A stretch of 64,000 nucleotides of DNA from the NCBI GenBank assembly GCA_030679255.1, contig JAUXTO010000025.1, forward strand, positions 8,719-72,718, written 5' to 3'. A model generated the notes under the pieces. The model was not told the origin of the DNA. It worked only from the letters and a program-made list of their open reading frames with translations, and searched no databases. Made by a program: the position numbers and the translations under genes. The first letter of the stretch is position 1; the number at the start of each line of letters is the position of its first letter. Below are positions 2,698-55,843 of the stretch, in pieces. This stretch comes from Candidatus Gottesmanbacteria bacterium (lineage in GTDB: Bacteria; Patescibacteriota; Microgenomatia; UBA10105; UBA927).

Positions 2698-3054
2698 ATG
2701 AAACAATCGAGCGATACTTCCTACCCCACCCCCGCGATGAAAGAACTTTTCCACGCAATACTTCGGATCAAAACTCCCGATGAAGCATCAAACTTTTTCC
2801 GCGACCTTCTCACCATTGCCGAACTCAAAGAATTTACCAACCGCTGGCAGGTCGTGAAACTTCTGTATGAAGGCATGACGTATGAAGCAATTGCCAAACG
2901 CCTGATGATTTCTACGGCGACCGTCACCCGAGTCACCCACTGGCTCCACCATGGAATGGATGGGTACAAAGCCGTGGCAAACCGGGCGTTTCTAAAAGGA
3001 AAATTAAAAGTCGTTGATCGTCATCCTCGGGCCCGAGGATCCAGTTCAATTTAG
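2698..3054 (+). CDS. TrpR-like protein of the YerC/YecD family
   Basis: DLLTIAELKEFTNRWQVVKLLYEGMTYEAIAKRLMISTATVTRV matches the YerC/YecD TrpR-related family. Confidence 0.65.
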   Translation: MKQSSDTSYPTPAMKELFHAILRIKTPDEASNFFRDLLTIAELKEFTNRWQVVKLLYEGMTYEAIAKRLMISTATVTRVTHWLHHGMDGYKAVANRAFLKGKLKVVDRHPRARGSSSI

Positions 3055-3644
3055 AAATTTGACACCATCTGTTTTCTAATAGGTTCATACTTCGTTTTCA
3101 CCTCTCCATCAACAGTAATCTTTGAAAATTGAGCAGGCAGAGGTTTTGCTGTATGCATACTCGGTCCATCTTGAAGATGAAAATGAATATGCGGCTCACT
3201 CGTGTTGCCGGTATTTCCGCACAATCCCAACAGATTGCCTTGTATCACGTGATCCCCAACCTTTACCTGAATAGAGTTATATTTGAAATGACATAGCACG
3301 CTGAATTCGCCGTTTTGGTGATCGATGATGACGGTATTGCCCACGCCCACCGCCCGATCGCGCTCGCCGGGCAGGACATCTATCGCGCCATTTATTACCT
3401 GAATAATAACGCCGTCGCCCGGAGCAATGACCTCCTCACTGTACACGTCATATTCTTCAAGTTTTTCTCCAGCTCCCGTATGCCCTCTTCTGAAATCATA
3501 CGCATATATCTGGTTCTTCGGCCCATCCCCACTCGCAAATTTTACATGATTATTCGTCTCTCCCGTTCGCCCACCATTACTCACCATCCACGTCCCCAAA
3601 AATGGAAGTACAAGTTTCGTTTTTGTTTGATAATCCATACCCAT
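3051..3644 (-). CDS. M23 family metallopeptidase (LytM domain)
   Basis: GNTVIIDHQNGEFSVLCHFKYNSIQVKVGDHVIQGNLLGLCGNTGNTSEPHIHFHL is the peptidase M23 signature (HxxxD...HxH). Confidence 0.85.
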   Translation of the reverse strand: MGMDYQTKTKLVLPFLGTWMVSNGGRTGETNNHVKFASGDGPKNQIYAYDFRRGHTGAGEKLEEYDVYSEEVIAPGDGVIIQVINGAIDVLPGERDRAVGVGNTVIIDHQNGEFSVLCHFKYNSIQVKVGDHVIQGNLLGLCGNTGNTSEPHIHFHLQDGPSMHTAKPLPAQFSKITVDGEVKTKYEPIRKQMVSNF

Positions 3645-4014
3645 AGTATACTTGGTACCGGTACGTAAATTTTTTCCGCATCACTAATCGCGGCCAAATA
3701 TCTCTCTTGACATCATCATGGTAACATGTTAACATGCTATTATTCAATTAATTAATCATTCTACACTTCTCTGTAGGAGTGTAGAAATTTGTCTATGAAA
3801 CTTTTCAATCAATCAAATCAATTTTCTTACAACCAAGCCGCTTCCGACGCGGCTTCTTCCGCTCGCTCCCCCCGCCATCATACCTACTCCTAATCATCCC
3901 CCGCGCGTCGCGGAGTTCTGAAGTTTTTTTCCAATTTTCATTTATCATTCGTAGATTTACAGATTCGTAGATTCATCATTTCTTCATAACTCCCCCACTC
4001 GCAGGAACACTATT

Positions 4015-4086
4015 GGTGGCTGTAGCTCAAAAGTAGAGCATCCCGTTGTGGGCGGGAGTGAGCGGGAGCGTTACCCGTCAGTCACC
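4015..4086 (+). tRNA. tRNA-His-like element (anticodon GUG, with G-1), non-canonical D- and T-loops. Either a genuine tRNA-His or a tRNA mimic in the his-operon leader.
   Basis: Hand fold: G-1 then acceptor GGUGGCUG/CAGUCACC (one G-U pair), D-stem GCUC/GAGC, anticodon arm UCCCG-UUGUGGG-CGGGA with GUG at positions 34-36, T-stem GCGGG/CCCGU. The 5' half is near-identical to E. coli tRNA-His (GUGGCUAUAGCUCAG...). The D-loop lacks GG and the T-loop is AGCGUUA instead of TPsiC. It ends 14 nt before the hisG SD (taaggagg). Confidence 0.45.
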
Positions 4087-4100
4087 CTAAGGAGGAATTT

Positions 4101-4979
4101 ATGACAGCAATAAACAACAAAAATCTAAAATTAGCGATGCAAAAAGAGGGGCGGCTGACCGAAGAAACGCTTGAATTTTTGCGTAAATCCGGCCTGGAAT
4201 TTGAAAGCTACAACCAAAGGCTTTTCTCGACATGCAGAAATTTTCCATTAGAGATCCTCTACGTGCGAGATGATGACATACCAGACTATGTAGCCTCCGG
4301 AACGGTTGATCTGGGGATCCTCGGACAAAATATACTCTCTGAGGAGAGACCGAAGGTAAAAAAACTCCTCAATTTACGTTTTGGGTTTTGTACGCTTTTT
4401 ATTGCGGTCCCAAAGGAATCACAGATCAATAATCTCTCCGATCTCAATGGCAAAACCATCGCGACAACCTACCCTAACTCTACCCAAAATTTTCTTCTAA
4501 AGAATAAAGTTGAAGCAAAAATAGTAACAATAAGCGGATCTGTGGAAATCACCCCTGCCCTTGGCGTAGCCGATGCCATATCCGACCTTCTCTCTACCGG
4601 AAGCACCCTGGCTCTGAATGATTTGCGGCCACTGACTAAAGTCTACGACTCCGAAGCCATACTCATCGCAAATGAAGAAAGTGTCGCATCCAAAAATAAA
4701 ATGATGCTCCTTAATAATCTTCTGACGAGATTTAAAGGAGTACTCTCAGCAAAAAATTACAAATATATACTGATGAGCGCTCCCGAAGAAAAACTCACGA
4801 AAATTAAAAAAATGCTGCCATCTCTTATTTTCCCCACGCTCGCAACGATTTCAAAAAATGGTTTTACGACGCTTCAAACCGTTATAAAAGAAGATGTACT
4901 TTGGGACATAACAGGCAAACTCAAAGCCGCAGGTATATCGCAAATCTTCGTATTGCCGATAGAAAAAATTATTTCGTAA
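4101..4979 (+). CDS. hisG: ATP phosphoribosyltransferase, long form
   Basis: 292 aa with HisG motifs (LAMQKEGRL, DIPDYVASGTVDLGILGQN) and the C-terminal regulatory domain. A strong SD sits upstream. Confidence 0.9.
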   Translation: MTAINNKNLKLAMQKEGRLTEETLEFLRKSGLEFESYNQRLFSTCRNFPLEILYVRDDDIPDYVASGTVDLGILGQNILSEERPKVKKLLNLRFGFCTLFIAVPKESQINNLSDLNGKTIATTYPNSTQNFLLKNKVEAKIVTISGSVEITPALGVADAISDLLSTGSTLALNDLRPLTKVYDSEAILIANEESVASKNKMMLLNNLLTRFKGVLSAKNYKYILMSAPEEKLTKIKKMLPSLIFPTLATISKNGFTTLQTVIKEDVLWDITGKLKAAGISQIFVLPIEKIIS

Positions 4980-4982
4980 AAT

Positions 4983-6280
4983 ATATGAACATCTACTCAC
5001 TCAGCGCCATACCGAACACTGTATATGACCGTGTCATGAAGCGATCATATGGATCCAGAGCGGACATACTCCCTCGCGTTCAACAAATTTTTGAAGATGT
5101 AAGAAAATACAAAGACCGTGCACTTTTCCAAGAATATGAAAAGCGATTCGGCTTAACTCCTTCATTTTCTTTAAAAATATCACGCAAGGAAATAAAAAGT
5201 GCGTATAAGAGGGTTGACTCGTCTCTGGTTCAAGCGCTCCAACAGATGATAAAAAATATTACCAAAGTAACTACGGCTCAGATGAAGTCAAAAACTGAGA
5301 CTGCAGTATCTACGGAAAAAGGGGTCAGAGCATGGCGGGAATGGAGAGCAATAGAAAAGGTTGGCCTCTATATTCCCGGCGGAAAAGCTGTGTATCCATC
5401 TTCAGTGCTCATGAGTGGGATACCTGCGATGGTTGCCGGATGCAAAGAAGTCATTCTCTGCTCCCCTCCTTCGGATAAAGGAAAAATTCCAGCGATTATC
5501 CTCGTCGCGGCAGATATGATCGGTATTTCAAATATTTACTCCGTAGGCGGCGCTTACGCGATTGCGGCGCTGACGATTGGCACAGAAAGCATACCAAAAG
5601 TCGACAAAATTATTGGTGCGGGAAATGCGCTTGTCACGACCGCTAAAATACTAGCACTTGAAACCACAAGTATCGATATGCCGGCAGGACCGTCTGAGGT
5701 ATTCATCATCGCAGACGAATCCGCAAATCCTTCCTACATCGCTTCGGATCTTCTGGCAGACGGCGAACACGGAGATGACTCGGCGTGCGTCCTCGTCACA
5801 ACATCATCTGATGTCGCCAAGAGCACGATACTTGAAATAGAAAAACAATTAATACACTTGCCTACTGCATCTCGTGTTCGCGAATCGCTAAGAAAGTACG
5901 GACTCGTTGCCGTTGTCAATTCTCTAGAGCAAGCAATCATTTTTGCAAATGACTACGCACCGGAGCACTTGGAAATTATGACAAAAAATCCAGTCGCGGT
6001 ATCTAAAAAAATTAATAATGCTGGCTCTGTTTTTATCGGAAACTATACATCCAAATCGGCAGGAGACTATGCTACCGGTGCGAATCACATATTGCCGACC
6101 GGTGGCATGGCAAAATCATATCCTCCTCTAGGTGTAGACGCGTTTGGGAAATGGATGCAGATCCAAGAATGCACAAAACAGGGCTTAAAAAATATTCAAA
6201 AAACAATTGAAGCCATCGCGACAGTGGAACAATTGCCAGCACACAAAAATTCTACATCAATACGATTTCAAAGTATATGA
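4983..6280 (+). CDS. hisD: Histidinol dehydrogenase
   Basis: HisD family motifs (GGKAVYPSSVLMSGIPAMVAGC, NHILPTGG). Start chosen at MNIYSLS just after the hisG stop. Confidence 0.9.
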
Positions 6281-7839
6281 ATAATCTAGTATTACAAAGA
6301 ATACGAAATATGAAACCATACGCGCTTCCAATCTCTGAGAGGCGTGCGTATCGTGGAATGCTGTTAGACTTTAACGAGCGCACAGTATCGACTTCTCCTA
6401 TCATCAAAAAAGCTATATTAAACCTATTGAAATCAGACACATTGCAGCTATACCCAGAATACGGTGGACTTGAGGTAAAGTTAGCGAAATATGCAGGCGT
6501 CGATTCAGATCAGATATTAATTACAAACGGATCTGACCAAGGGATTGATCTTGTATTTCGTACATTTACAGAAACCGGAGACACTGTCATCATTCCAACT
6601 CCCAGTTTTGCAATGTTCTCTCAGTCTGCTTGTATATCAGGAAATAAAATTCTCCGTCCTATGTATGCTAAGAAGAATTTGTCGTTTCCTCTCGATGACG
6701 TACTGTCAATGATAAATGGATCCATAAAACTCATTGTCCTCTGTAACCCAAATAACCCTACCGGCACAGCAGTGTCAATTGATGGTATTGAGCAAATTGC
6801 GCAGAGGGCACCTAATGCAATAATTCTTGTCGACGAAGCATATTTTGAATTTTCAGCACTTACAGCTGTTACGCTCATTGAGAAATACCCAAACATTATC
6901 GTAATACGAACACTTTCAAAAGCCTTTGGCCTCTCGTCACTGCGTATCGGCTATATTGTTGCATCAAAAAATTACATTAATGAGTTTTCTAAAATTCGAG
7001 GACCGTTTGATGTAAATATGATCGCATACACAGCTTCACTGGCAGCACTTGAGGACCTAAAAGACATGCAAAGGTATGTGAATGAAGTAATGAAAAAATC
7101 CAAGCCGATGATTGAAAAATTTTTCTTTGAAAACGATATAAGATTTTATGCATCTGCTGCTAACTTTATTCTTTATAAACCAATTCAAGAACAGGAAGAA
7201 AAAATATTAAGAGACAACGGCATCTTAGTACGTGCACAAGATAAAACTAATATAGAAAATACCCTTCGTTTAACTATAGGAACTATTGAACAGATGAAAC
7301 AATTCATAAAAGTTTACCGAAATAAGATATTGAAAAAATCGAAATCAATAAAATACGCGTTTATAGATCGCGACGGAACATTAATTTTTGAGCCTCAAGA
7401 TACATTTCAGATTGACAGCATAGAGAAGTTAAAAATTTTAGACGGAGTAATCCCTTCACTCAATAAACTCAGTAAGAAAGGGTACGAACTTATTATGGTA
7501 TCAAATCAGGATGGCTTAGGAACGTCGGCTTTTCCACTTGCAAATTTTGAAGTGCCTCAAAACAAAATGCTAGAAATTTTTGAGAAAAATGGTATTACAT
7601 TTACCAAAATATATATCTGTCCACACATGCCATCGGAAAGCTGTATGTGCAGGAAACCAAAAATCGGACTTGTAAAAAAATTTCTAAAAGTGAACCAGAT
7701 AGACAAGAATAACTCCTTTGTCTGTGGAGATCGAGAGACTGACAGACGCTTTGCAAAAAATATCGGAATCAAATATGTCTCTATGAAAACGAATGGAAAT
7801 TTTCAAACAGCTCTATCACAAGGAGGTATAATTGTATGA
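6277..7839 (+). CDS. hisC: Histidinol-phosphate aminotransferase fused to a C-terminal HAD-type histidinol-phosphatase domain
   Basis: The first ~350 aa are class-II aminotransferase (NPNNPTG, SKAFGLSSLRIGY). The C-terminal ~165 aa is a HAD phosphatase (FIDRDGTL, GmhB/HisB-N-like). The start is ATGA-overlapped with the hisD stop. Confidence 0.8.
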   Translation: MNNLVLQRIRNMKPYALPISERRAYRGMLLDFNERTVSTSPIIKKAILNLLKSDTLQLYPEYGGLEVKLAKYAGVDSDQILITNGSDQGIDLVFRTFTETGDTVIIPTPSFAMFSQSACISGNKILRPMYAKKNLSFPLDDVLSMINGSIKLIVLCNPNNPTGTAVSIDGIEQIAQRAPNAIILVDEAYFEFSALTAVTLIEKYPNIIVIRTLSKAFGLSSLRIGYIVASKNYINEFSKIRGPFDVNMIAYTASLAALEDLKDMQRYVNEVMKKSKPMIEKFFFENDIRFYASAANFILYKPIQEQEEKILRDNGILVRAQDKTNIENTLRLTIGTIEQMKQFIKVYRNKILKKSKSIKYAFIDRDGTLIFEPQDTFQIDSIEKLKILDGVIPSLNKLSKKGYELIMVSNQDGLGTSAFPLANFEVPQNKMLEIFEKNGITFTKIYICPHMPSESCMCRKPKIGLVKKFLKVNQIDKNNSFVCGDRETDRRFAKNIGIKYVSMKTNGNFQTALSQGGIIV

Positions 7840-8426
7840 ACCGAAAAGCAATAATAAGCAGGAAAACAAACGAAACTGACATTTCAGTAGACCTGAACAT
7901 TGACGGAACAGGAAAAAGAACTATAGATATACCGATAGGATTTCTAACGCACATGTTGGATCTATTGTCCAAACACGGCATGTTTGATCTTTCCATAAAA
8001 GCTCGCGGAGATACAAATATAGACGAGCACCACACGGTCGAAGACATTGGCATTGTCTTGGGCGAGGCGTTCGCAAAAGCTCTTGGGGATAAAAAGGGCA
8101 TCAGTCGATATGGCTTTTTTATACTCCCGATGGATGAAGCAGTGGCGACGGTGGCTGTCGATTTTGCGGGACGATATGCGTTTACGCTCGACTGTCCATT
8201 TTCCCGAGAAAAGGTTGGTGATTTACCAACAGAGCTCGTCTATGATTTCTGGGATGCATTTGCCCAAAACGCAAAGGTAAATTTATTTATCAAAGTCGAA
8301 AACGGCCGGAACGATCACCACAAAATTGAAGGGGTATTTAAAGCAACTGCCCGGGCAATACGTATGGCGTGCGGATGGGACGAGCGGGCAATCAATCAAT
8401 TACCATCAACAAAAGGAACGTTATGA
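7836..8426 (+). CDS. hisB: Imidazoleglycerol-phosphate dehydratase
   Basis: IGPD motifs (IDEHHTVEDIGIVLGEA, GRNDHHKIEGVFKA). Confidence 0.9.
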   Translation: MNRKAIISRKTNETDISVDLNIDGTGKRTIDIPIGFLTHMLDLLSKHGMFDLSIKARGDTNIDEHHTVEDIGIVLGEAFAKALGDKKGISRYGFFILPMDEAVATVAVDFAGRYAFTLDCPFSREKVGDLPTELVYDFWDAFAQNAKVNLFIKVENGRNDHHKIEGVFKATARAIRMACGWDERAINQLPSTKGTL

Positions 8427-9037
8427 TAACCATCATTGATTATGGATTGGGAAATATCGGAAGCGTGGCAAACACGCTTACGCGACTTGGCCAAACGTAC
8501 CAAATAAGCGCTGACCCAGCAGAGATCAGATCTGCTGATGTGCTGTTATTGCCGGGTGTCGGCGCGGCGGGGGTTGGCATGAAAAATTTACGGGATCGAG
8601 GGCTCGACGTTGCTATTCGACGTGCAATACAAAACGGAAAACCATTTCTTGGAATTTGCCTCGGTATGCAATTGTTGTTTGACTATAGCGAAGAAGCCGA
8701 TACTCCATGTCTGGGAATACTCAAGGGATCGGTGAAAAAATTTCAGCGCGAACGGAAGGTGCCCCAAATCGGATGGAATCTAGTAATTCCGGTCAAGACA
8801 AATCCGAATGCTGTGCGATTGTTTGCCGGCATTCCGGAAAGAAACGCGTTTTATTTTGTAAACAGTTATTACCCAATTCCGGCTGATACGTCAGTCGTTG
8901 CGGCGACAACCGAATATGGCGAGCAGTTTGCAAGTGTCGTTGCGATAAAAAATATCGTTGCGACACAATTCCACCCGGAAAAAAGCGGCGAAACAGGACT
9001 CAGATTGTTACAAAATTTTATAAAGGAGTATGTATGA
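8423..9037 (+). CDS. hisH: Imidazole glycerol phosphate synthase, glutamine amidotransferase subunit
   Basis: [15 protein letters not shown]..., GICLGMQ and a catalytic H near the C-terminus. The start overlaps the hisB stop. Confidence 0.9.
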
Positions 9038-9798
9038 CAACCAAACGCATTATTCCATGTCTGGATATGACGCAAGGAAAAGTGGTGAAAGGGATTCAAT
9101 TCGTGGATTTCCGGGATGCCGGAGATCCGGTCGTGCTTGCCAAAAAATACAGTGAAACAGGAGCGGATGAATTAGTATTTTTGGATATCACGGCCACGGT
9201 TGAAAATCGGCCAATTCTTTTGGATGTTGTGGAGAGAACGGCAAAAAATGTAACTATCCCTTTTTCCGTAGGCGGCGGTATCAGAACTATCGAAGATATG
9301 CGTCAAATATTACTAGCCGGAGCGGATAAGGTATCGGTAAACACTGGAGCGGTAAATAACCCTGCGCTCATTACGAAATGTGCCAACGCATTTGGCAATC
9401 AGTGTGTAGTACTGTCTTTAGATGCAAAACAGATGGCACCAGGACAGTGGAATGCTTTTATTAACGGTGGCATGAAGGATTCTGGTAAATCAGCGATTGA
9501 TTGGGCAAAAGAAGCCACGCGGTTAGGTGCGGGCGAAATTCTTCTGACGAGTATCGATCAAGACGGTACAAAAAAAGGATTTAATATAGGTCTTACAAGA
9601 GAAGTTTCTCGGAACGTATCCGTACCGGTGATAGCTTCAGGAGGAGCCGGGAAAAAAGAGGATTTTTTAGATGTGTTTGTAAAGGGTGAAGCGGACGCTG
9701 CTCTTGCCGCATCATTGTTTCACTTTAGCGAATTGACAATCAAGGAGCTTAAACAATATCTCAAAGAACAAAATGTCATAATACGGGAGGCTTTATGA
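9034..9798 (+). CDS. hisF: Imidazole glycerol phosphate synthase, cyclase subunit
   Basis: [17 protein letters not shown] and ASGGAG match HisF. No hisA lies between hisH and hisF. Confidence 0.9.
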
Positions 9799-10115
9799 AG
9801 AATGTAACGATAGATTTTAGTAAAAGAAATGGATTGGTACCCGCTATTATTCAGGATTTTCAAAGCGGAGTTGTTTACATGCTCGGATATATGAATAAAG
9901 AAGCGTTCGAAAAAACAAAGGAAACCAGTTGGGTATATTTTTGGAGCAGAAGCAGAGAATGTTTATGGATGAAGGGAGAAGAATCAGGAAATAAACTAAG
10001 AGTAAAAGAGATTCTTATTGATTGTGATAACGATACAATTTTAGTAAAGATCAAATTGGATGGAAAAAACGCGTGTCACACAGGCAATATAACATGTTTT
10101 AATACGAAATTGTGA
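9795..10115 (+). CDS. hisI: Phosphoribosyl-AMP cyclohydrolase
   Basis: 106 aa with GLVPAIIQD and CHTG motifs. Confidence 0.85.
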
Positions 10116-10122
10116 GGAATAT

Positions 10123-10422
10123 ATGACATTAGAAGAACTATATAAAATTATCAAAGATCGTAAAAAGAACATGCCAGCAGGTTCTTATGTCGCTTCTCTT
10201 TTTCGGGGCGATGGAGATCGCATTGCTCAAAAGGTGGGAGAAGAAGCAATGGAAGTGCTGATTGCGGCGAAGAACGAGAGTAAATTACGCCAAGTCGAAG
10301 AGTTTACCGATCTTTTCTTTCACGCGCTGATTCTCATGGCACAACTCAATATATCGCTTATCGATATTTCTCGTGAGTTATCCAGACGAAATAAATCAAA
10401 AACAAAACGCGTGATACAATAG
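10123..10422 (+). CDS. hisE: Phosphoribosyl-ATP pyrophosphatase
   Basis: 99 aa, MazG-like (EEAMEVLIAAKNE...FFHALILM). Confidence 0.85.
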   Translation: MTLEELYKIIKDRKKNMPAGSYVASLFRGDGDRIAQKVGEEAMEVLIAAKNESKLRQVEEFTDLFFHALILMAQLNISLIDISRELSRRNKSKTKRVIQ

Positions 10423-26569: not shown

Positions 26570-27229
26570 TCAAGAGGCATCCAGTAGCGAAATAACATCC
26601 TTCATTTTTTCCGCAGTGATATCCGCTCCCCTCTGCTCATACCCCACCGGCAAATGCTGCCGGTAGCCGATGGTAAATAATTCAGCGGCTTTGGCAGAGA
26701 CAATTCCAGGATTGGAATCTTCAAGCGCGACGCTTTGTTTGGAATCGGCATGAAGAATTTTCAATAAATGGAGATATCCATCCGGTGCGGGTTTAGGTCG
26801 CAGTTCCTTATGAGCATTGAGGGATAACACCATAGTGAGGTTCTTCCGCCATGACAAACGACACAACACCTGCTCAATCCAATGCATCGGAGAGGAAGAA
26901 AGCAGGACGATTTGCCAGTCATGCGTTACGAGGTAGTCAACAAGCATGTCAACTCCTTCACTAATGCTACAGCGGTTATAGACGCGCATCGCCGCTTCAT
27001 CAGACTTCTTGTTATATTGATCGTGGGTTATCTTTGATCCCAAGGACTTGGCCTTTTGATAAATGTCTTCAATAGATACCCCGACCATGTCCCCGATCGC
27101 CAACGCAATGTCTTTCCCAAATAGCTTCACATAAAAATCCGCCTCGTCCTCAATCCATGATTTTTCGCTCGCGACAAGGACCCCGTCCATATCAAAGACA
27201 AATAATCGTTTTTTGGTCACACAATGCAT
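26570..27229 (-). CDS. HAD-IA family hydrolase (beta-phosphoglucomutase-like)
   Basis: FVFDMDGVLV is HAD motif I; the other HAD motifs are downstream. Confidence 0.7.
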   Translation of the reverse strand: MHCVTKKRLFVFDMDGVLVASEKSWIEDEADFYVKLFGKDIALAIGDMVGVSIEDIYQKAKSLGSKITHDQYNKKSDEAAMRVYNRCSISEGVDMLVDYLVTHDWQIVLLSSSPMHWIEQVLCRLSWRKNLTMVLSLNAHKELRPKPAPDGYLHLLKILHADSKQSVALEDSNPGIVSAKAAELFTIGYRQHLPVGYEQRGADITAEKMKDVISLLDAS

Positions 27230-27294
27230 TGTATCACGCGCGATGAACACACCGTATTGACATATAATTATATGTATAGTAATATGTTCATCAT

Positions 27295-35045: not shown

Positions 35046-35960
35046 TTACTTGATCATTGAAGCAATAGCATCCGCGATAAGTGGCGCGACAGAAATAAAT
35101 CGAAGCTTGGGAAACAATTTTTCTTTCGGCAATTGGATCGTATCCGATACGATAAGCGTATCAATGGGAGCCGTGGATAGTTTCTCCTTTGCCTCCCCGG
35201 CAAACACCGCATGAGAAGCAAGGACCGTGACGCTTGCGGTTCCGGCCTCTTTGAGAGACTCAGCGCTGTGAGCAATTGTTCCGCCGGTTGAGATGACATC
35301 ATCGATGATGACCGCGTCCATTCCTTTTACATTTCCAATGATTTCAAATGATTCGCTGGTATCATGCCGGTCCAAAAACCGCTTTTTTTCCATGACGACC
35401 ATGGGAACATCGAGCGCATAGGCCAGATTTCTCGCCCGTTTGACCCCGCCCACATCCGGAGATACCACGACCGGGCGGGCGAGCGATAATTTTTTGACTT
35501 CCTCGGTTAATACGTCCATGGCCGTCACATGACTCACAGGAATTTGAAAAAACCCGACGATCGCATCGTTGTGAAGATCAACCGTGATCACCTCTTTGTA
35601 CTTGCTCACCTCGATAAACTTGGCTATCACCCGCGCACTGACCGGTTCTCCAATTCGATGTTGCTTATCCTGACGGGCGTATCCCATATAAGGAATGACG
35701 GCAATCATATTGCGTGGTGCACTCCGCCTGATCGCATCCCCCATAAGGGAAAGCTCCATGACGTGCTCATCCATGGGGTACGAGAGCGATTGAATAACAA
35801 ATACTGTTTTATCCCGGACATCTTCCTGGATCCATGGGCGCAGTTCGCCATCGGCAAACCTGCTTAAATCCACCTTCCCGAGGGTCGTGTGGAGGAGTTT
35901 GGCCACTGCTTGAGCCAGAGGAATATTGCTCGAGCCGGAGAAGAGAAGAAAATCCTTCAT
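35046..35960 (-). CDS. prs: Ribose-phosphate pyrophosphokinase
   Basis: A PRPP-binding loop (VIIDDVISTGGT) and the N-terminal Prs domain. Confidence 0.9.
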   Translation of the reverse strand: MKDFLLFSGSSNIPLAQAVAKLLHTTLGKVDLSRFADGELRPWIQEDVRDKTVFVIQSLSYPMDEHVMELSLMGDAIRRSAPRNMIAVIPYMGYARQDKQHRIGEPVSARVIAKFIEVSKYKEVITVDLHNDAIVGFFQIPVSHVTAMDVLTEEVKKLSLARPVVVSPDVGGVKRARNLAYALDVPMVVMEKKRFLDRHDTSESFEIIGNVKGMDAVIIDDVISTGGTIAHSAESLKEAGTASVTVLASHAVFAGEAKEKLSTAPIDTLIVSDTIQLPKEKLFPKLRFISVAPLIADAIASMIK

Positions 35961-35965
35961 TACAA

Positions 35966-36682
35966 TTATCCTAACAAAGTTAGTACCCGCTCGTCCATGA
36001 GGGAATCCACGACCAGATCGGCGCCTTCCTTAACCAAATCATCATGCCCATGAGTCATTCCAGTTGCGACCCCGATGGTTGTCGCTCCCACATGCTTCCC
36101 GCATCGGATATCGTAAATTGTATCTCCAATGATGACCACGTCGCGCGGCACGAAGGATTGGGCAAAATACTTCGTGGCTTTGGCAACGGCGTGACGGGCG
36201 AGCTCATTCCTGTCGTTTACATCATCAGCAAATGCACCAAAAGAAAAATACTCCCGCATGCCGGCGTGATCGAGCTTAAACCATGCGTTGATTTCAATGT
36301 TTCCCGTGATAAGTCCCAAGGCATGATCGTTCTTCGTATACAGAAGTTGCACGAGCTCAAGCGCTGCAGGATGCGCATGGTACAGTATTTCACCGCTTTC
36401 TACAGACGCTTTTAGCGTGTCATGGAACACCTGTCGGGCTTTGGAAAAGTGAGCATCAAATACTGTGTCATCCGTGACCCCTGCATCGCGGGCAATCGAG
36501 CGCAATACATTCCGATCGACCCCTCCGTTGTAGCGGTGTGTTTCGATTTGAAAATCTACTTCTTTGCCGTATACCTCTTTTATCACCTTGCCGATGCGGT
36601 GTTTCCAGTGTTGGACACTGTTACTCGTCGTCTGGACGAGCGTCCCGTCGATGTCAAAGAGGATAAGTTTGTTCTTCTTCAT
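35966..36682 (-). CDS. HAD family hydrolase
   Basis: LILFDIDGTLV is motif I. Start chosen at MKKNK. Confidence 0.7.
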   Translation of the reverse strand: MKKNKLILFDIDGTLVQTTSNSVQHWKHRIGKVIKEVYGKEVDFQIETHRYNGGVDRNVLRSIARDAGVTDDTVFDAHFSKARQVFHDTLKASVESGEILYHAHPAALELVQLLYTKNDHALGLITGNIEINAWFKLDHAGMREYFSFGAFADDVNDRNELARHAVAKATKYFAQSFVPRDVVIIGDTIYDIRCGKHVGATTIGVATGMTHGHDDLVKEGADLVVDSLMDERVLTLLG

Positions 36683-37896
36683 GGGTGGTACGCGTTGAGT
36701 GCTTTTGTGAGGATATCGATGCATCGGATGATATCGGGGATGGATAACACGTAGGCAATACGGACTTCGTTTTTTCCTTTACCAGGTGTTGCATAAAACC
36801 CCGCAGCGGGAGCCACCATGACGGTTTCGGCCTGTCCTGATCCGTCAGCTGACGGAGAAGGATCTCGAAAATCCGTAAGGAGCCACTGACAAAAATGCTC
36901 GGCATCCTCAACCGGCAGTCCCACGATTGCGTAAAATGCGCCCTCAGGTTTGGGGATGGTGACACCCGGAATATGACGCAATCCTTCGTATAATACGTCC
37001 CGACGTTTTTCATATTCATCATGGACTTCTTGAAAGTACGACACCGGCACCTTCGTGAGTTTAGCAGCCATCAACTGGTCGATGAGCCCCGCCGAAAGCC
37101 TACCTTGCCCGATCCGTAAGACGCCTGCCATAATATCTTGATTGAGCGAGATGAGCGCTCCGATTCGCGCTCCACAGACGCTGTAGCGCTTCGACAGACT
37201 ATCCAGAACTATCGCGTGCTCAGGAATTTCCTGCATAAAGGAAAGAAGGGACACCTGACGGGCGCCATCATAGGTAAATTCCCGATATACTTCATCGGAG
37301 AGAAGAAACAGTCCATGCTTTTTTGCGAGCGCCACGAGTGTTTCTATTTCGCTTTTTGAATACACGGTGCCCGTCGGATTGTTGGGATTGCAATAAAGAA
37401 TAGCTTTCGTCTTTTTCGTAATCTTGCCCTCTATCACCGATTGCGCCGGCAAATGAAATCCGTCAGATAAATTCGTTGGGATTGGTACTAATTGCACACC
37501 ATTGACCGCCGCGTACGTATTGTAGTTGGCATAAAACGGCTCAAAGACGATGATCTCGTCACCCGGATCGGCAACGGCAAAAAGCGCCCAGGAAATTGCC
37601 TCGGATCCTCCGATGGTCACCTGGAGATGTGATGTATCGAGAAATATCGCCCCAAGTCCGTGGTAATAAATTTTTAATGATTCTAAAAGACTCGGCTCTC
37701 CCTGGGACTGACTATACCCCACGGGATTACGGTCCCAATCCCGTAGAACCTGGAGCATCACCTCCGGCGTTTTGATGTCCGGGTCGCCAATATTAAAATG
37801 GTACACCTTCACCCCTGCTTTCTTTGCCGCCGTGGCGTACGGCACGAGTTTACGGATAGGAGAGGCGGGAACGCTCGATAGTCTTTGAGATGTCAT
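36679..37896 (-). CDS. Class I/II (AspAT-like) PLP-dependent aminotransferase with an in-frame palindrome insertion
   Basis: NPNNPTG and SLSKRYSVCGARIG motifs. The insertion at 36831-36866 encodes DPSPSADGSG, the same peptide as in htrA. Confidence 0.8.
   Translation of the reverse strand: MTSQRLSSVPASPIRKLVPYATAAKKAGVKVYHFNIGDPDIKTPEVMLQVLRDWDRNPVGYSQSQGEPSLLESLKIYYHGLGAIFLDTSHLQVTIGGSEAISWALFAVADPGDEIIVFEPFYANYNTYAAVNGVQLVPIPTNLSDGFHLPAQSVIEGKITKKTKAILYCNPNNPTGTVYSKSEIETLVALAKKHGLFLLSDEVYREFTYDGARQVSLLSFMQEIPEHAIVLDSLSKRYSVCGARIGALISLNQDIMAGVLRIGQGRLSAGLIDQLMAAKLTKVPVSYFQEVHDEYEKRRDVLYEGLRHIPGVTIPKPEGAFYAIVGLPVEDAEHFCQWLLTDFRDPSPSADGSGQAETVMVAPAAGFYATPGKGKNEVRIAYVLSIPDIIRCIDILTKALNAYHP
36831..36866. 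repeat. Family 4 palindromic insertion, copy in the aminotransferase gene
   Basis: cctgtcctgatccgtcagctgacggagaaggatctc encodes the same DPSPSADGSG peptide. Confidence 0.75.
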
Positions 37897-50307: not shown

Positions 50308-50610
50308 TTATTTTTGACTGAATTCAAATAAAGATACTTGCGCAGCCCTTTGAGGAAATGCTTTTGGGTTTTTTAAGTAATCAAGATAATGATCTGGATA
50401 ATTATGCAATGCATAAAGAACCATGTGAACTCCATGAAGACGCTCTAAATCCTCTAGTTGAAGTTGGGTAATTTCAATTCCAAATTCTTTACAAAAATGT
50501 CCAGCATCTGTGGCAACGGCTTTATCTATTTCTTCCTGAATAACATGTACATCTCGAGGGCGTGGAATTCCCTGTTCTACACGTTCATTCAAATCTACTG
50601 CTTGTGGCAT
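50308..50610 (-). CDS. Hypothetical protein
   Basis: 100-aa ORF. Confidence 0.35.
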   Translation of the reverse strand: MPQAVDLNERVEQGIPRPRDVHVIQEEIDKAVATDAGHFCKEFGIEITQLQLEDLERLHGVHMVLYALHNYPDHYLDYLKNPKAFPQRAAQVSLFEFSQK

Positions 50611-50676
50611 AGCACTCCCCTTTCATCGACAAAGTCCACCAAAAAAGAGTCTATTTTTATGTGTTATACTCTCTCT

Positions 50677-51396
50677 ATGACACAAAGTCTACAGGAGATT
50701 GCTGCTCACCTTGATCTTGCCAACCACCACGCCGGCGCCACAGCGGAGGATGTGAAGGAAGTCTGTGCAAACGTCATCAAATACGGCTTCAACGGCGCAT
50801 TCGTGAATCCCTGTTATATCAGCCTTGCGAAAGCAGAACTTGGTGACCGCGCCAAAGTCGGAACGGCATTTTCTTTTCCACTCGGACAGGATACATTGGA
50901 TATGAAATTATTTGCCACTCGCGAGGCGATCAAACTTGGAGCCGATGAACTGGATATTGTACCCAATAATGGGCTACTCCTCACCGAAAGTGGCTTTGGA
51001 CAGTACCGTGATGAACTCCGTGTGATTGTCGAGGCGGCCCATGAGGCCAGGGCGGATATCGTCGTAAAATTTATTATCGAAACAGGACTCTTCCTTGAGG
51101 GTGACGTGTCCGCATCAATAGATGAAAAGGATCGGGGAGAATTTCTCATTAAACGGTCTGCTGAAGCAATACTTGCCAGTGGCGCAAACTTCGTAAAAAT
51201 CTGCTCGGGGATGGGCAAACGCGGCGCGAGCCTCAATGACGTACGTCTCGTGAAGGAGGCTATCGGGACGGCCCCCATTAAAATCAAAGTCGCCGGCGGG
51301 ATTGATACCATTACAGAAGTTCGCGGATTCCTAGATGCCGGTGCCCAGAGAATCGGGACTTCAAAAGCCGTGGAGATCGTGGAGCAAATAGTCTAA
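50677..51396 (+). CDS. deoC: Deoxyribose-phosphate aldolase
   Basis: Start chosen at MTQSLQEIAAHLD. DeoC pattern (FVNPCYISLAKAEL...GADELDIVPN...KVAGGI). Confidence 0.8.
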   Translation: MTQSLQEIAAHLDLANHHAGATAEDVKEVCANVIKYGFNGAFVNPCYISLAKAELGDRAKVGTAFSFPLGQDTLDMKLFATREAIKLGADELDIVPNNGLLLTESGFGQYRDELRVIVEAAHEARADIVVKFIIETGLFLEGDVSASIDEKDRGEFLIKRSAEAILASGANFVKICSGMGKRGASLNDVRLVKEAIGTAPIKIKVAGGIDTITEVRGFLDAGAQRIGTSKAVEIVEQIV

Positions 51397-55105: not shown

Positions 55106-55843
55106 CTAATCTTCATCAATTTCTGCTTTTGCAATATACCGAATACTTTCAACTTCAAAATCATAATCCTGTATCTCGACAAACTCTTTATATGACTGTA
55201 ATCCCGTTTTCGCTTTAGAGAAATAAGAAAGAATTGTCTTTGGCTTCACCCACTCTTGATGAATCTCTCCCAGGTAATTGGGATACGATGACGGTTGTAA
55301 CCGCAATATTTGAGATCGCTTTTTTGGATCTAGCCTTAAAAGGTGAGACCTTTTGAGGCTAAACGGATTACGGTGGATATATCGGGATACATGAAGAAGC
55401 TGCGCGTCATTAGTAATCAAGACTGCCTTATACGTTCCTTGAAAGACAGACCCTACTCGCTTGTGCCGGCTGTTTTCATACATCGTAAACCGAGTCATCA
55501 CAGATTGTACAAATTCACTCATGTCTGACTCCCCTTTTTGCTGGAGAAGAAAATGGAAATGATTGGGCATCAGGCAATAGGCCAAAAGATCAATCTTACC
55601 AGTAAAATTCTTTAGTCGAAGCTCTCGTGCTGCTACCCCACGTTCTTTATAGGAAAGGGATTCCTCTGACGCCATCTCCCGAAGTTTTTTTTCATCTTTT
55701 GGACGTAATGCGGTTGCAATATAAGAAAGGAATACTCGATAATCCTGATCATCAATGAATATATCCGCTTTATTCACTCCTCGATTATAGACATGATACA
55801 CCCCATCAGAGACGTACGATTTGATGATATTTTTGGCAGGCAT
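55106..55843 (-). CDS. REP-associated tyrosine transposase (RAYT; IS200/IS605-like HuH Y1 transposase), with a REP copy inserted near the catalytic Tyr
   Basis: YHVYNRGVNKADIF, HuH MPNHFHFLL, and RYIHRNP (the Y motif). SLKRSHLLRL is inserted immediately after NPF, via the element at 55330-55362. Confidence 0.8.
   Translation of the reverse strand: MPAKNIIKSYVSDGVYHVYNRGVNKADIFIDDQDYRVFLSYIATALRPKDEKKLREMASEESLSYKERGVAARELRLKNFTGKIDLLAYCLMPNHFHFLLQQKGESDMSEFVQSVMTRFTMYENSRHKRVGSVFQGTYKAVLITNDAQLLHVSRYIHRNPFSLKRSHLLRLDPKKRSQILRLQPSSYPNYLGEIHQEWVKPKTILSYFSKAKTGLQSYKEFVEIQDYDFEVESIRYIAKAEIDED
55330..55362. repeat. REP-like family 1 element inside the RAYT gene
   Basis: ctagccttaaaaggtgagaccttttgaggctaa. 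Confidence 0.8.

Follow-up and report, generated by a model that had tools for sequence, protein, structure and literature searches.

A hisA-less histidine operon with a hisC::hisN fusion in a Candidatus Gottesmanbacteria genome

The histidine operon and its hisC::hisN fusion

We analyzed the histidine biosynthesis (his) operon at positions 4101–10422 of a 64,000-nt stretch of contig JAUXTO010000025.1. This stretch, hereafter the window, lies on a 75-kb contig of a fragmented metagenome-assembled genome (MAG) of Candidatus Gottesmanbacteria, a member of the candidate phyla radiation (CPR/Patescibacteria). Eight open reading frames (ORFs) follow one another there on the same strand in the order hisG-hisD-hisC::hisN-hisB-hisH-hisF-hisI-hisE, and their products carry the accessions MDP1722482–MDP1722489. 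Gene identities were judged by NCBIfam equivalog cut-offs, above which all eight products scored. The first gene, hisG (4101–4979, plus strand, like the seven others), encodes an ATP phosphoribosyltransferase (TIGR00070, 193 bits; cut-off, 75.8) of the long form, with a C-terminal HisG_C regulatory domain (TIGR03455, 77 bits; cut-off, 40; PF08029, 56.6 bits), and therefore no HisZ is needed. It is followed by hisD, encoding histidinol dehydrogenase (4985–6280; TIGR00069, 480 bits; cut-off, 244), by the hisC::hisN fusion (6277–7839), and by hisB (7836–8426; NF002111, 262 bits; cut-off, 231). The 196-aa HisB is a monofunctional imidazoleglycerol-phosphate dehydratase (IGPD) without an N-terminal HAD domain, and aligns only to residues 166–355 of the bifunctional model. 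Downstream lie hisH, encoding a glutaminase subunit of a type designated HisH* (8423–9037; TIGR01855, 224 bits; cut-off, 105), and hisF, encoding a 254-aa cyclase subunit of the HisF* type (9034–9798; TIGR00735, 355 bits; cut-off, 294.6). The operon ends with hisI for phosphoribosyl-AMP cyclohydrolase (9795–10115; NF000768, 136 bits; cut-off, 126) and hisE for phosphoribosyl-ATP pyrophosphohydrolase (10123–10422; TIGR03188, 95 bits; cut-off, 42.7). Stop and start codons overlap as ATGA at five of the seven junctions (D/CN, CN/B, B/H, H/F, and F/I), which would couple the translation of most his genes; the other two junctions have gaps of 5 nt (G/D) and 7 nt (I/E). An earlier note on this DNA had read the same genes in the same order, with a long-form hisG, an IGPD-only hisB, and ATGA overlaps across most junctions, and had raised the possibility of a reduced genome. 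The family models and coordinates given above bear out these readings, and the genome, a CPR MAG, is indeed reduced.

The product of the third gene, 520 aa in length, joins two enzymes. Residues 1–350 constitute histidinol-phosphate aminotransferase (TIGR01141 hisC over residues 7–348, 285 bits; cut-off, 276.6), with the pyridoxal phosphate (PLP) lysine, Lys215, in the motif SKAFG, and residues 359–505 match the histidinol-phosphatase model TIGR01261 (hisB_Nterm, 206 bits; cut-off, 140). The HAD part contains the motifs DRDGT (364), SNQ (409), CPH (448), CMCRKP (456), and GDRETD (484). Across 11 diverse fusion homologs, there is no variation in the PLP lysine, the four HAD motifs, or the Cys/His zinc loop. 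The solved structure nearest to the HAD part is E. coli HisB-N (2FPR, 170 bits, vs 64 bits for GmhB), with which it shares 54% identity over 142 residues. GmhB, which the earlier note had named as the competing identity, was rejected, the GmhB models remaining below their cut-offs (110 against 178 and 84 against 150 bits). Judged by its motifs, the HAD domain is a HisB-N-type histidinol-phosphatase with a predicted complete catalytic apparatus; the TIGR01261 score and the 2FPR match agree with the proposal in the earlier note that this enzyme is fused to hisC. The fusion places the consecutive pathway steps 7 (imidazole-acetol-phosphate to histidinol-phosphate) and 8 (histidinol-phosphate to histidinol) on one polypeptide.

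Relatives of the fusion protein are numerous. At least 120 full-length clusters (clustered at 90% identity) share 57–100% identity with the window protein, and the named clusters among the matches listed belong to Gottesmanbacteria, Daviesbacteria, Peregrinibacteria, or the “Patescibacteria group.” These clusters are annotated merely as histidinol-phosphate transaminase, and the public call of the fusion in the same organism starts differently, giving 509 instead of 520 aa (locus L005; L-numbers denote the related his loci compared with the window). The two parts also occur unfused in the CPR: in L010 (Buchananbacteria), C and N are encoded in separate, overlapping reading frames, and in L012 (Gracilibacteria), N is a stand-alone gene upstream of hisG. 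Gammaproteobacterial candidates among the matches listed in a profile search proved to be adjacent hisC and hisNB genes and not fusions. Reviews that list the his genes undergoing fusion do not include hisC among them (PMC1963479, PMC7284861, and PMC10138114). We conclude that hisC::hisN is a genuine fusion that is widespread in the CPR and under-annotated. Separately, hisC has independently become linked to a phosphatase a second time, as observed in L022 (9986–11701, from a MAG labelled as an archaeon), in which it is fused to an HAD-IA domain that resembles TIGR01548 (129 bits, below the cut-off of 140). The same HAD type is encoded by a separate gene between hisC and hisB in L090 (1832–2599).

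Absence of hisA from the operon and possible routes for the isomerase step

No hisA lies between hisH and hisF, the start of hisF overlapping the stop of hisH, and the NCBI annotation (Prokaryotic Genome Annotation Pipeline, PGAP) numbers HisH and HisF consecutively (MDP1722485 and MDP1722486). A six-frame tblastn search of the 64 kb with E. coli HisA, three CPR HisA types, and HisF returned hisF only, and no His_biosynth or TrpF domain was detected with Pfam in 20 further mid-sized ORFs of the window. No window ORF scored above the HisA cut-offs (TIGR00007, PRK13585, and TIGR02129); the cross-matches of hisF to HisA models reached 131 bits (cut-off, 229) and 152 bits (cut-off, 243). The tblastn and Pfam searches thus substantiate the statement of the earlier note that operon and window lack hisA, and no overlooked hisA ORF was found in the operon. 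The hisA-less G-D-CN-B-H-F-I-E layout recurs in L001 (574-kb contig), L004 (740-kb contig), and L173 (145-kb contig), as well as in L005, which is from the window's own organism, and in L006, L008, and L009 (Daviesbacteria). L090 also lacks hisA and has its own unfused, different hisC with a separate HAD gene. The independent hisA-less operons therefore number eight (window/L005, L001, L004, L006, L008, L009, L090, and L173). That the absence is an artefact of assembly or annotation is very improbable, given the negative six-frame search and a hisH-ATGA-hisF junction that is identical in independent JGI, ENA, NCBI, and Logan assemblies.

In the sister operons L170, L171, and L172, with the order hisR-hisG(long)-D-CN-B...I-E, a 236-aa hisA is located between hisH and hisF (TIGR00007, 273 bits; cut-off, 229). 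Because these operons keep hisA, its absence from the window operon is a derived state. When L172, which has hisA, was compared with L173, which does not, identity was 79% for HisG, 87% for HisD, 89% for HisCN, and 89% for HisB, but just 54% for HisH and 66% for HisF; between L172 and L171, HisH and HisF were 74% and 88% identical. In a tree of HisCN, the hisA-bearing and hisA-less operon types were interspersed. This interspersion and the L172/L173 identities together indicate exchange of the whole H-(A)-F segment in one piece. The HisF of all eight hisA-less operons is of a single separate type, HisF*, which is recognizable by its sequence motifs (mostly including GFN) and is accompanied by a HisH* of its own, and in the window operon hisH-hisA-hisF has been replaced by this two-gene hisH*-hisF* cassette. 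A search of metagenomes with a HisF* profile yielded L090 as the sole HisF* relative among the matches listed, the rest being ordinary HisF. One member of the cluster of the window HisF at ≥90% identity is labelled Candidatus Wunengus sp. YC60, an anammox Planctomycete MAG; this is probably a mis-binned CPR contig.

In the reading that we favor, the phosphoribosylformimino-AICAR-phosphate (ProFAR) isomerase step (AICAR, aminoimidazole carboxamide ribonucleotide) would be provided in trans, and the most probable source is a hisA in the approximately 90% of the genome outside the window; we put the prospects of a hisA elsewhere in the genome at about even. This reading is drawn from the fragmentation of the MAG, from the normal scores of HisF* in family models, and from the frequency of hisA-less hisH-hisF loci in other bacteria. 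hisH-hisF occurs without a nearby hisA at 38 of 117 conventional-HisF loci of other bacteria, many of those inspected being isolated hisH-hisF pairs, and such bacteria presumably keep hisA elsewhere. Three considerations weigh against it. First, we built a HisA profile from the L170 and L171 proteins, which matched at least 120 close HisA clusters and shows orthologs of at least approximately 55% identity. Among the 120 best HisA-family matches, 13 of those listed pair with HisCN-bearing contigs by equal contig size, and no orthologous HisA lies on the 574-kb (L001), 740-kb (L004), or 145-kb (L173) contigs. Second, a lone distant hisA would be odd in a streamlined genome in which nine other activities are gathered in one coupled operon. 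Third, a recipient whose segment was replaced by hisH*-hisF* would become an auxotroph unless it already had another hisA.

Alternatively, HisF* may be bifunctional, one (beta-alpha)8 active site performing the Amadori rearrangement of ProFAR to phosphoribulosylformimino-AICAR-phosphate (PRFAR) and then the ammonia-dependent cyclization to imidazole glycerol phosphate and AICAR, so that no hisA would be needed. We consider this possible but distinctly less probable. An actinobacterial precedent is PriA, which covers for the lost trpF. All eight HisF*-type operons lack hisA, all three inspected close relatives with a conventional HisF have it, and for approximately 10 further operons there is a HisA on a contig of the same size; the lack of HisA matches on the three long contigs would also fit. 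HisA and HisF are paralogous; PRFAR is a ligand of both, and they have in common acid/base aspartates at homologous strand ends (PMC7284861). By family models, HisF* is a normal HisF (355–367 bits on TIGR00735) that falls below every HisA cut-off, and alignments to LUCA-HisF (4EVZ) and 1KA9 showed that it keeps R5, D11, K19, E46, D98/K99, D130, and E167, a set that includes the catalytic D11 and D130 and the ammonia-gate residues R5, E46, K99, and E167. At otherwise conserved HisF positions, 6 of the 19 HisF*-specific substitutions match the HisA consensus, against 3 of 62 in control HisF clades of similar size (Fisher p = 0.004); the strictly HisA-like ones are R16K, I129L (next to D130), and D184N. 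This comparison was made post hoc with a small sample of 6–7 sequences, and the changes involved are conservative; the HisA-leaning substitutions are a lead from sequence comparison, not proof. Moreover, HisF* scored in effect no higher on the HisA model PRK13585 (151–161 bits) than the conventional HisF of L171 (150 bits). To our knowledge, no natural HisF with HisA activity has been described, and our literature searches on CPR histidine biosynthesis, hisA-less genomes, and HisF with HisA activity returned nothing relevant. We offer as a tentative suggestion that the HisF* lineage of the window operon and its seven CPR counterparts naturally combines the HisA and HisF activities in one enzyme, which would have allowed repeated cassette replacement. 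A further candidate identity for HisF*, the glycosyl-amidation paralog WbuZ/HisF2, was rejected: its scores were 276–288 bits on the WbuZ model (cut-off, 299.7) and 226–237 bits on AglZ (cut-off, 310), the conventional HisF of L171 gave the same values, and the genes lie in a his operon and not among polysaccharide genes.

The form of hisA itself varies among CPR operons. HisA is of the classical type in L170, whereas a eukaryote-type HisA is encoded between hisH and hisF in L010 (11439–12197, Buchananbacteria; TIGR02129, 336 bits); when the latter was used as a query, the matches listed were filled by unrelated organisms. In the more distant CPR operons of L086–L089, with the order hisR-hisS-hisG(short)-D-CN-B-(H)-hisAF-hisIE, hisA and hisF are fused into a 491-aa protein (TIGR00007, 394 bits; TIGR00735, 434 bits), and the L086/L007 locus has no hisH. 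Such fusions, 491–504 aa in length, were located in L086/L007 (12090–13595), L087 (12866–14341), L088 (12706–14187), L089 (12731–14206), L012 (12189–13688), and L016 (12178–13689), and belong to Saccharibacteria, Peregrinibacteria, other Patescibacteria, Gracilibacteria, and one Bacillota MAG. hisA is missing from the lists of fused his genes in the reviews cited above for hisC (PMC1963479, PMC7284861, and PMC10138114). Since several forms of hisA occur, its displacement does happen in the CPR, and this lability would fit a further possibility, an isomerase encoded elsewhere that is unrelated to HisA or has diverged too far for HisA searches to detect, for example a different sugar-phosphate isomerase or TIM barrel. 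Such an enzyme is nevertheless unlikely: the eight hisA-less operons have differing flanks with no conserved extra gene beside them, and the sole other TIM-barrel match in the window is a DeoC/LacD-family aldolase (50458–51396, plus strand).

CPR bacteria are generally auxotrophic, and the operon could in principle be a decaying one in a host-dependent organism, with a gapped pathway that no longer functions de novo. This is at least as unlikely as a hidden isomerase. All eight genes are intact, score above their equivalog cut-offs, and appear translationally coupled; the his genes are 53–87% identical over eight lineages with invariant catalytic motifs; and regulatory leaders (T-box and HisR) have been maintained. 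No frameshifts or relaxed selection were seen in the his genes of the HisF*-type operons.

The tRNA-His gene, the leader, and the regulator

Immediately upstream of hisG, ARAGORN identified a tRNA-His gene (4015–4087, plus strand) with the anticodon GUG, G-1 encoded at position 4015, C73, and no CCA. The Rfam tRNA model gave it 41.9 bits, despite which the Rfam gathering scan of the full window missed it. The gene ends 13 nt before the hisG ATG, and the Shine-Dalgarno sequence of hisG, AGGAGG (4090–4095, plus strand, as read from the sequence), starts 3 nt past the tRNA 3′ end. This spacing leaves no space for a separate promoter, so that the tRNA and hisG are probably co-transcribed, with subsequent processing of the tRNA. 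A tRNA-His gene occupies the same place in L004 (7714–7791), L008 (7755–7829), L172 (6469–6541), and L173 (7787–7859). Over these five lineages, including the window, 8 of the 22 cloverleaf pairs show compensatory changes, and the 8-bp acceptor stem includes G-1:C73. Since the cloverleaf and the G-1:C73 pair covary, a degenerate mimic was rejected, and by its cloverleaf, GUG anticodon, and G-1:C73 the product is a predicted tRNA-His. Its elbow is non-canonical, the D-loop AAAAGUA lacking G18 G19 and the T-loop AGCGUUA lacking T54-Psi55-C56, and is identical or near-identical in the window, L008, and L173.

Further upstream, a promoter-like site, TTGACA-17-TAACAT (3707–3735, plus strand), has 10 of 12 matches and a TG before the second hexamer, which would fit a promoter function. 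It overlaps a perfect palindrome, CATGTTAACATG, and L008 has conserved this palindrome as well as TTGACA. The leader (3743–4014) folds with a z-score of −4.4 and contains a 12-bp hairpin (3759–3786, plus strand), followed by a 32-codon mini-ORF (3795–3893, plus strand) that ends in R-H-H-T-Y-S*, with two adjacent His codons at 3876–3881. L008 has an equivalent mini-ORF ending in Y-H-H-S-R*. The palindrome, hairpin, and mini-ORF may form an operator plus a minimal attenuator.

Other relatives carry T-box(His) leaders, detected in L004 (7473–7700), L173 (approximately 7545–7775), L172 (approximately 6215–6460), and L009 (approximately 7585–7812) with 47 bits on RF00230 (E-value 2.5e-9), a score below the Rfam gathering threshold of 93. 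They have a CAC specifier in an ultrashort Stem I, a UGGG bulge fitting the discriminator C73, and an overlapping terminator, and in three loci the T-box heads a unit that starts with the cognate tRNA-His gene. No T-box (RF00230) was detected in window positions 3600–4200 at E ≤ 10; the window and L008 have instead the palindrome-overlapping promoter, structured leader, and mini-ORF. A hisR-like regulator gene of the TrpR family (2698–3054, plus strand; PF01371, 80 bits) is also present, its ORF opening at 2659 (TTG) with the likely start at ATG 2698. The best solved structure for its product is 3G1C (66.7 bits), the TrpR-like protein of E. eligens, which has been treated as HisR (PMC9413887). 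The gene adjoins the his operon in L001, L170–L173, and L086–L089. In the window, a minus-strand M23 peptidase gene (3051–3644) lies between the two, whereas they are directly adjacent in most relatives. We sought a HisR operator with the pattern cacTTTAnnnnnnTAAAgtg, the published HisR box being TTTA-N6-TAAA, a Firmicutes motif. The published box is absent near the promoter of the window, and was found at the promoter in L001 (7392–7411) and L173 (approximately 7494–7513).

A true hisS (TIGR00442, 404 bits, with the hisZ model below its cut-off) lies directly upstream of the short-form hisG in L087 (6716–8029), L086, L088, and L089; hisS is inside the operon in L172 (7450–8712) and after hisE in L004 (14055–15323) and L170. 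Elsewhere in the window, the minus strand encodes a phosphoribosyl pyrophosphate synthetase, which supplies the pathway substrate (35046–35960), two stand-alone HAD hydrolases (26570–27250 and 35966–36724), and an IS200-like transposase (55106–55843).

Significance and comparison with known systems

The hisC::hisN gene adds to the catalogue of his fusions one that joins consecutive steps. Given the transaminase-only annotation, automated reconstructions would miss the phosphatase in CPR genomes, and in this case the isomerase too, and would class such genomes as auxotrophs. Some CPR bacteria keep a regulated, otherwise complete amino-acid pathway. The evolution of enzymes by duplication of a broad-specificity ancestor has its textbook example in HisA and HisF. 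If true, the replacement of both enzymes by a single HisF barrel in a living lineage would provide direct evidence of such an ancestor.

The operon resembles the enterobacterial hisGDC(NB)HAF(IE) in gene content and order, in its long-form hisG, and in its overlapping stop and start codons, and the C-N-B order is collinear, with the gene boundary alone placed differently. It differs in that the phosphatase is attached to HisC and not to its enteric partner IGPD, as the earlier note had remarked and the domain models confirm, in the absence of hisA, and in having separate hisI and hisE; in addition, there is no 7-His leader peptide, and tRNA-His precedes hisG. Compared with E. coli HisNB (2FPR), the phosphatase has the same DDDD motifs and Cys/His zinc loop and a different partner: HisNB unites steps 6 and 8, which do not follow one another, whereas the CPR fusion joins steps 7 and 8. 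The T-box(His)/HisR regulation of Gram-positive his operons (PMC9413887) is paralleled by the HisR-like gene near the operon and by the T-boxes of relatives, but the window itself has neither T-box nor HisR box, and its tRNA-His gene is inside the regulated unit. PriA, the actinobacterial HisA/TrpF (PMC4732765), offers a precedent in which a (beta-alpha)8 enzyme of this superfamily covers for a lost paralog in one active site. However, PriA belongs to the HisA family of isomerases and catalyzes two Amadori rearrangements, whereas in the present case a cyclase of the HisF family would need to acquire an isomerase step. Finally, eukaryotic HIS7 (HisH-HisF) and the CPR hisA-hisF fusions rearrange the same enzymes of the hisBHAF core, and the window operon has neither of these fusions.

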